Below, in pieces: positions 7,848-8,483 of a stretch of 64,000 nucleotides of DNA. The notes below the pieces were generated by a model. That model saw only the letters and a program-made list of their open reading frames with translations, did no database searches and was not told the DNA's origin. The stretch's first letter is position 1. The number at the start of each line of letters is the position of its first letter. Origin of the DNA: Escherichia coli (GTDB lineage Bacteria > Pseudomonadota > Gammaproteobacteria > Enterobacterales > Enterobacteriaceae). The DNA lies in NCBI RefSeq assembly GCF_003334305.1, contig NZ_QOWS01000015.1; one strand, written 5' to 3'. The position numbers and the translations under genes were made by a program.

Positions 7848-8036
7848 ATGGGCAAAGCAACGTATACCGTGACCGTCACCAATAACAGCAATGGCGTTTC
7901 TGTCGATTATGAAACAGAGACGCCGATGACTTTGCTGGTGCCAGAAGTGGCGGCTGAAGTGATAAAAGATTTGGTGAATACCGTGCGTTCTTATCCGGTG
8001 CGCCGTAAAACCCCGTCCTTCAGGGCGGGGATATAA
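7848..8036 (+). CDS. yoaG: Small protein YoaG; its 3' end may overlap the left end of the IS element
   Basis: 62-aa ORF starting 4 nt after the yeaR stop; the last codons run through the IS-type hairpin at 8011-8030. Confidence 0.7.
   Translation: MGKATYTVTVTNNSNGVSVDYETETPMTLLVPEVAAEVIKDLVNTVRSYPVRRKTPSFRAGI
8011..8030 (+). repeat. Candidate left-end subterminal hairpin of the IS (ccccgtcc-ttca-gggcgggg)
   Basis: 8-bp stem with one T.G pair and a 4-nt loop; near-identical to the hairpin at 9713-9732. Confidence 0.55.
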
Positions 8037-8051
8037 GGCGCGGTTTTCCAC

Positions 8052-8483
8052 CTAACCAGGTGTTTGCTGTTGTTCAATGTATTGGCGGATGACGGATATT
8101 GGCGCACCTCCGCAGCTACTGGCAAAATAGCCAGGACTCCACAAAACGCCTTTGTAGTAATACCTGACTGCAATATCTGGTCGATCTCGTCGCAGTAACC
8201 TACCCGATACGCCTTTGAGGCTGTTTACCAGACTGGATATCGCCAGTTTGGGAGGATAGTTAATTAACAAATGGACGTGATCTGGTTCGCCATCCATTTC
8301 AACAAGTTCAGCTTCAAAATCAGCACATACATTTGAAAAGTAAGTGCGTAGTTTTTCTGTCGCGTCATGGTCAAAAATCTGGAGTCGGTATCTGGTGACA
8401 AAGACCAGGTGAACATGCATCAGGAAAACACAATGCCTTCCACGCCGGATATCGGTTTCTTTTTTCACAGACCAAAGTATCAT
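8052..8483 (-). CDS. tnpA: IS200/IS605-family HUH Y1 transposase TnpA
   Basis: HVHLL (HuH) motif and C-terminal catalytic Tyr context (RQYIEQQ); 143 aa. Confidence 0.9.
   Translation of the reverse strand: MILWSVKKETDIRRGRHCVFLMHVHLVFVTRYRLQIFDHDATEKLRTYFSNVCADFEAELVEMDGEPDHVHLLINYPPKLAISSLVNSLKGVSGRLLRRDRPDIAVRYYYKGVLWSPGYFASSCGGAPISVIRQYIEQQQTPG

Follow-up and report, generated by a model that had tools for sequence, protein, structure and literature searches.

An IS609-type element inside yoaG, common to about 20% of complete Escherichia coli genomes

The 64-kb stretch of Escherichia coli DNA analysed here (the window) carries an IS609-type element of the IS200/IS605 family inside yoaG, which is cut after codon 49, between codons 49 and 50. 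The insertion is common to about 20% of complete E. coli genomes. It is an element of a known kind and an ordinary IS200/IS605 insertion polymorphism, accounted for in full by the established mechanism of that family and already present and annotated in RefSeq; a survey of the literature on IS609 and on insertion sequences in yoaG found neither an account of the insertion nor biochemical work on IS609.

Boundaries of the element and the chimeric YoaG

The yoaG-derived open reading frame (7848–8036, plus strand; 62 aa; TAA stop at 8034–8036) follows leuE (6674–7312) and yeaR (7485–7844) in the window, and yeaQ (9926–10174) lies beyond the element. Alignment to IS-free yoaG, as an earlier note on this DNA had proposed, was made with E. 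coli strain A13 (locus L001) and K-12 as references, and it located the end of the identity precisely: the match to A13 extends from the start of yoaG to 7994 with one SNP and is then lost, and, traced backwards from yeaQ, the identity reaches 9743. Since the identity stops at 7994/7995 and resumes at 9743, the element occupies 7995–9742 (plus strand; 1748 bp; first bases, CCGGTGCGCC; last bases, GATGTCAA). The empty site of strain A13, TCTTAT|GACACGG (...CGTTCTTAT|GACACGGAAAACG...), corresponds exactly to the left and right flanks brought together, without a base more or less and hence without target duplication, and the element is devoid of terminal inverted repeats, as is characteristic of the IS200/IS605 family. 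The host DNA adjoining the left end is the tetranucleotide TTAT (7991–7994, plus strand), corresponding to the target/cleavage tetranucleotide (CL) and also to the TnpB TAM. The insertion is thus placed, as the earlier note had supposed, within the 3′ terminus of yoaG, the shared sequence ending after Tyr49, and its positions for a hairpin in the last yoaG codons (8011–8030), the yoaG stop, and the tnpA stop (8052–8054; TAG, plus-strand CTA) are all correct. The close packing of yoaG and tnpA was likewise rightly described, with an interval of exactly 15 nt (8037–8051) rather than about 16 nt.

Codons 1–49 of yoaG (7848–7994, plus strand; last codon TAT for Tyr49) are retained, as judged from the A13 alignment and from PDB entry 1NEI, which agrees with the window protein at every residue up to 49. 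Native YoaG has 60 residues; its last 11 codons are exchanged for 13 element-encoded ones (PVRRKTPSFRAGI) followed by the TAA stop (7995–8036, plus strand). The view that the final residues (RRKTPSFRAGI) are IS-encoded is therefore borne out, the true tail being two residues longer than listed and the boundary lying 16 nt upstream of the hairpin. The native tail DTENEHDVCGW with its stop codon (9743–9778, plus strand), now unused, is stranded 1.75 kb off, just beyond the right end, and the net charge of the tail changes from −4 in the native form to +4 in the IS-derived one.

It could be argued that the 62-aa yoaG, with its tail native, is ancestral and that the 60-aa form arose by precise loss of the element; excision of IS200/IS605 elements is scarless, and the empty sites alone therefore give no direction of the event (PMC3201880). 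However, the 60-aa form with the ...YDTENEHDVCGW tail is kept in Salmonella, Enterobacter, Leclercia, Yokenella, Mixta, and the other homologues aligned, in which D50, V57, C58, and W60 are near-invariant and G59 is invariant, and we take the 60-aa form as ancestral because of this conservation across the Enterobacteriaceae. The 42 bp coding for the 13-residue tail and stop are also carried by the left ends of IS copies that lie in unrelated loci, identical except for one SNP (at 8036) in one copy, and the native yoaG tail is intact directly past the right end. The homologue conservation and the tail-coding DNA on IS copies elsewhere rule out an ancestral 62-aa allele to all practical purposes.

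In the AlphaFold model of native YoaG (mean pLDDT, 68.7; moderate confidence), a β-hairpin (residues 6–11 and 18–23) is followed by helices extending to residue 52. According to this model, the insertion would retain the core residues 1–49 and remove the final three residues of the long helix. The model gives no indication of a role for the lost tail, of which residues 53–60 have a pLDDT below 50.

Farther downstream, a strong hairpin of 9–10 bp (9790–9815; GATGGCGCA-ATTTC-TGCGCCATC) is present after the native yoaG stop (about 1146–1170 in A13 L001), followed by GCAAAAAA without a T-run. The 101-nt native yoaG 3′ region containing it folds with z = −3.5, and in the occupied genomes the hairpin is now 1.75 kb away from the truncated yoaG.

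Subterminal hairpins and the putative guide sequence

The left-end hairpin (8011–8030, plus strand) consists of CCCCGTCC-TTCA-GGGCGGGG, with eight pairs including one T·G; AUAUAAGG comes after it on the plus strand. As DNA, the 34-nt hairpin folds with −7.5 kcal/mol (z = −2.8 against shuffles), and the 60-nt left end with z = −2.66. The sole other near-match of the hairpin 20-mer in the 64-kb window, where none is expected by chance, is at 9713–9732 (plus strand; three mismatches) and constitutes the right-end hairpin (IPR). The top strand therefore carries an imperfect subterminal hairpin at each end, the right one of this copy being degraded. The left hairpin and the canonical right hairpin share the same architecture, with one compensatory pair (C–G versus A–T), and the left one is identical in every IS copy read, at five genomic sites. 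In the right hairpin of this copy, two changes (9715 A>T and 9720 C>A) break two pairs, by which the fold is weakened from −7.7 kcal/mol (z = −2.9) in the canonical sequence to −3.1 kcal/mol (z = −0.3). On this ground, the copy is probably impaired for excision.

The family has its mechanistic model in IS608 of Helicobacter pylori, which inserts 3′ of TTAC and whose flanks rejoin scarlessly with no gain or loss of DNA; in IS608, TnpA binds subterminal hairpins at both ends, 4-nt guides directly 5′ of each hairpin foot recognise the cleavage sites (GL, AAAG, for CL, TTAC), and the right end is cleaved 10 nt beyond the hairpin foot on its 3′ side (PMC3201880). The present element resembles IS608 in the subterminal hairpins, the retained 5′ tetranucleotide, and the absence of duplication. 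At its right end, TCAA (9739–9742, plus strand; the presumed right cleavage site, CR, by the IS608 geometry) closes exactly 10 nt past the right hairpin (9733–9742), as in IS608. At its left end, the four nucleotides abutting the hairpin foot on the 5′ side are AAAA (8007–8010, plus strand), and the correspondence of AAAA with TTAT appears to follow that of AAAG with TTAC in IS608 position for position, the G-to-A change in the guide matching the C-to-T change in the target. By analogy, we infer that the hairpin at 8011–8030 is the left-end TnpA-binding hairpin (IPL) and that AAAA is the left DNA guide (GL) recognising TTAT. The element differs from IS608 in that tnpA is inverted relative to tnpB, in that the target is TTAT and not TTAC, and in the distance from the left cleavage site to the hairpin foot, 16 nt as compared with 19 nt.

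An outer 5-bp helix, GCGCC (8000–8004)/GGCGC (8037–8041), surrounds the left hairpin and the AAAA, with GGUUUUCC / GGTTTTCC coming next on the plus strand; in one IS copy (L005), GCGCT in the outer helix leaves only a wobble pair at the altered position.

The position of the left hairpin, which on the minus strand lies 21 nt past the tnpA stop and is immediately followed by UUUUAC (TTTT being the minus strand of 8007–8010), raises the question of whether it is also the intrinsic terminator of tnpA, as the earlier note had suggested, and whether the close ends of the truncated yoaG and tnpA form a shared, bidirectional terminator. The 76-nt minus-strand RNA folds better than its shuffles (z = −2.46), and on the plus strand the outer helix closes round the hairpin before GGUUUUCC. 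IS200 has been reported to carry a terminator hairpin at its left end. On the other hand, a terminator scan of 7300–10300, for which 5 T in 8 were required, yielded nine terminator-like sites, from which the left hairpin is absent on either strand; only 4 T are available at the site, where a rho-independent terminator would comprise a GC-rich stem-loop and a U-tract of about five or more U, and this combination is not found there. In the minus-strand stem, a C·A mismatch takes the place of the plus-strand T·G wobble, and the better structure is thus on the top strand, i.e., the strand of transposition. The A-run, moreover, is already accounted for as the guide for TTAT by the IS608 rule (PMC3201880), and its complement, the minus-strand TTTT, is thereby explained as well. 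The case for a tnpA terminator at the left hairpin is weak, and in the form put forward in the earlier note it is not supported, in view of the short T-run, the C·A mismatch, and the scan. A bidirectional or tnpA-specific terminator is accordingly rated as unlikely, and partial termination in either direction as doubtful to the same degree.

We consider it very likely that the locus arose by single-strand "peel and paste" transposition of the IS609-type element directly 3′ of TTAT in yoaG, and no observation speaks against such an insertion. As the mechanism is envisaged, largely from IS608, TnpA would bind the left hairpin, and AAAA would pair with TTAT for cleavage and target choice, the minus-strand TTTT after the hairpin being a mere by-product of this guide. 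The left end supplies 13 codons and a stop to the chimeric YoaG, and the native tail is moved 1.75 kb to the far side. Guide pairing and TnpA binding are the steps drawn from the analogy.

Distribution, relatives, and origin of the yoaG copy

By megablast of 7400–10300 against 5426 complete E. coli genomes, the whole 2.9-kb arrangement was found in one piece in 1096 of them, and most others had the flanks only. The junction between yoaG and the left end and that between the right end and the yoaG remnant, searched for with 200-bp probes, were each detected in 1100 of the 5426 genomes and uninterrupted yoaG in 4318, so that occupied and empty alleles together account for 5418/5426. A yoaG end bearing the hairpin in a genome lacking the element, the observation that the earlier note had named as contrary to an insertion, was not found by the junction probes in these complete genomes; the 4318 uninterrupted genes have a different 3′ end. 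A solo left end at yoaG was also considered, for which there was no indication in the junction counts, equal for left and right (1100 each), with 1096 full-length.

The element contains tnpA (8052–8483, minus strand), encoding a Y1 HUH transposase of 143 aa, intact here, and tnpB (insQ-type; 8491–9699, plus strand), encoding an RNA-guided endonuclease of 402 aa, also intact; both were assigned from their open reading frames and NCBIfam profiles. TnpA matches NF033573 with 142.8 bits (cutoff, 55) over 126/126 profile positions, with the HUH (DHVHLL) and Tyr (RQYIEQ) motifs recognised by eye, and TnpB matches NF040570 (RNA-guided endonuclease TnpB) with 384.8 bits (cutoff, 100), as would be expected of a TnpB with a RuvC-like nuclease fold. 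The Y1 HUH TnpA, the scarless empty site, and the insertion 3′ of a fixed tetranucleotide are all as in the IS200/IS605 family.

The same 1748-bp element is present at four other loci, namely ydcL/ydcO, a TetR-family gene beside ytfB, yfaY/yfaV, and a DUF3251 gene, and the copies there differ from the yoaG copy at 24–40 positions (about 97.7–98.6% identity). TTAT before the left end and the TCAA terminus are found at 5/5 independent loci. The tnpA product of the O157 copy is named "IS200/IS605-like element IS609 family transposase" in RefSeq, and from this label we take the name IS609; the yoaG copy differs from the RefSeq-labelled IS609 of O157:H7 at 40/1748 positions (97.7% identity). Copies with about 95% nucleotide identity or more to the reference over the full length are regarded as isoforms by ISfinder. 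The two are alike in length (1748 bp), gene order, TTAT flank, and TCAA end, and also in the left end except for one SNP, and IS609 shows the IS605-type organisation with divergent tnpA and tnpB. Unlike the O157:H7 copy, the yoaG copy has its location in yoaG and the private changes at 9715 and 9720 in the right hairpin. The IS609 copy of K-12 showed no transposition in mutation-accumulation lines (PMC5009759). This immobility is in keeping with the strain W4 copy at the same ydcL/ydcO locus, in which codon 75 of tnpA is an in-frame stop.

The tnpA stop is polymorphic, being TAG at 8052–8054 in the window and CAG in many copies (L004–L007, L009, and L012); with CAG, the frame continues through the left end into the flank, and such copies are called pseudogenes by PGAP. 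At the yoaG site of O104:H4 (L009), the tnpA frame thus reaches 320 aa, antisense to yoaG and yeaR, in agreement with a 176-aa antisense open reading frame at 7521–8051 in the window.

The two right-hairpin changes also bear on the origin of the yoaG copies. All six copies read at this site (the window, A7, O104:H4, 00_3305, FHI_NMBU_11, and OkiPb01682) share 9715 A>T and 9720 C>A, neither of which occurs in any copy read at the four other sites; the leuE allele WP_000457202.1 is present in 5/5 occupied RefSeq genomes fetched, the two empty ones having other alleles. Because of the shared private mutations and the single leuE allele, the yoaG copies, from the 6 of 1100 that were read, look like a single old insertion that was subsequently inherited. 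Among the yoaG-site copies, L011 and L012 contain blocks of SNPs typical of IS609 copies at other loci and keep the private right-end mutations; these mosaics point to gene conversion among IS copies. In L012, neither tnpA nor tnpB is intact.

TnpB, its putative guide RNA, and the meaning of the locus

In Rfam, searched at a permissive E-value, the left end had no match; the only match, to RF03064 (RAGATH-18) at 9626–9669 on the plus strand, is sub-threshold (29.5 bits; E = 0.0085; gathering score, 44.9). The RAGATH-18-like match sits in the 3′ end of tnpB, where the ωRNA/reRNA scaffold is expected. RAGATH-18-derived RNAs guide the TnpBs of IS607 (PMC11061315). Beyond the right end, the DNA reads GACACGGAAAACGAAC..., and this sequence placed after TTAT is exactly that of the empty allele; GACACGGAAAACGAAC (9743–9762) together with TTAT makes a perfect TAM and target in the 4318 genomes whose yoaG is intact (1092–1115 in A13 L001). 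By the published model of TnpB (bioRxiv 10.1101/2023.03.14.532601), the guide RNA of the element would target the intact yoaG allele, and the stranded yoaG 3′ end would at the same time be the TnpB guide/target. In common with ISDra2 and the IS605-family elements of Geobacillus stearothermophilus (TnpB/ωRNA), the present element has an intact tnpB toward the right end, with its stop 43 nt short, and a TTAT TAM with the right-flank sequence recreated in the empty alleles, whereas its putative ωRNA is represented only by the sub-threshold RAGATH-18-like match.

The frequency of 20% might accordingly be the outcome of TnpB/ωRNA homing into empty yoaG after recombination or horizontal transfer, and not of simple vertical descent. 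The intact tnpB (NF040570 match) and the exact presence of the TTAT-GACACGGAAAACGAAC... of the right flank in the empty alleles fit such a scenario, and homing and retention have been demonstrated for other IS605-family elements (bioRxiv 10.1101/2023.03.14.532601). However, in the same study the IS608 TnpB of H. pylori was inactive in the assays (bioRxiv 10.1101/2023.03.14.532601), and the IS609 TnpB is predicted from sequence. The right-end mutations, moreover, lie in the ωRNA 3′ region and could impair the ωRNA, and their occurrence in 6/6 copies, with one leuE allele in the five occupied RefSeq genomes, fits one lineage. We regard homing as an improbable explanation of the frequency, and vertical inheritance of one old insertion as the preferred one.

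A more elaborate possibility, to which we assign a very low probability, is a host-wired, immobilised gene-drive-like locus, in which the nitrate/NO-inducible yeaR promoter would read through the truncated yoaG, silencing tnpA and driving tnpB and the ωRNA against intact yoaG. Read-through from yeaR might occur because the native terminator hairpin has been displaced by 1.75 kb. If this were true, the transcript would cover tnpA in antisense, and tnpB and the ωRNA in sense orientation, and a host stress signal would both shut off the transposase and switch on an RNA-guided nuclease aimed at intact yoaG, at a locus immobilised by its degraded right end and maintained in about 20% of E. coli.

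Beyond annotation, the importance of the insertion is small. In annotation, the 62-aa "DUF1869 protein" WP_000513743.1, present in about one-fifth of complete E. coli genomes, is the IS-truncated YoaG, and it is best treated as a disrupted or altered allele, not as a natural variant, its conserved acidic ...CGW tail having been exchanged for a basic one of IS origin. In a natural setting, the locus also illustrates the IS200/IS605 rules cleanly, with its TTAT target, the covariation of guide and target with IS608, and the scarless empty sites, and the occupied and empty yoaG alleles provide a ready natural pair in which possible homing by the IS609 TnpB could be studied.
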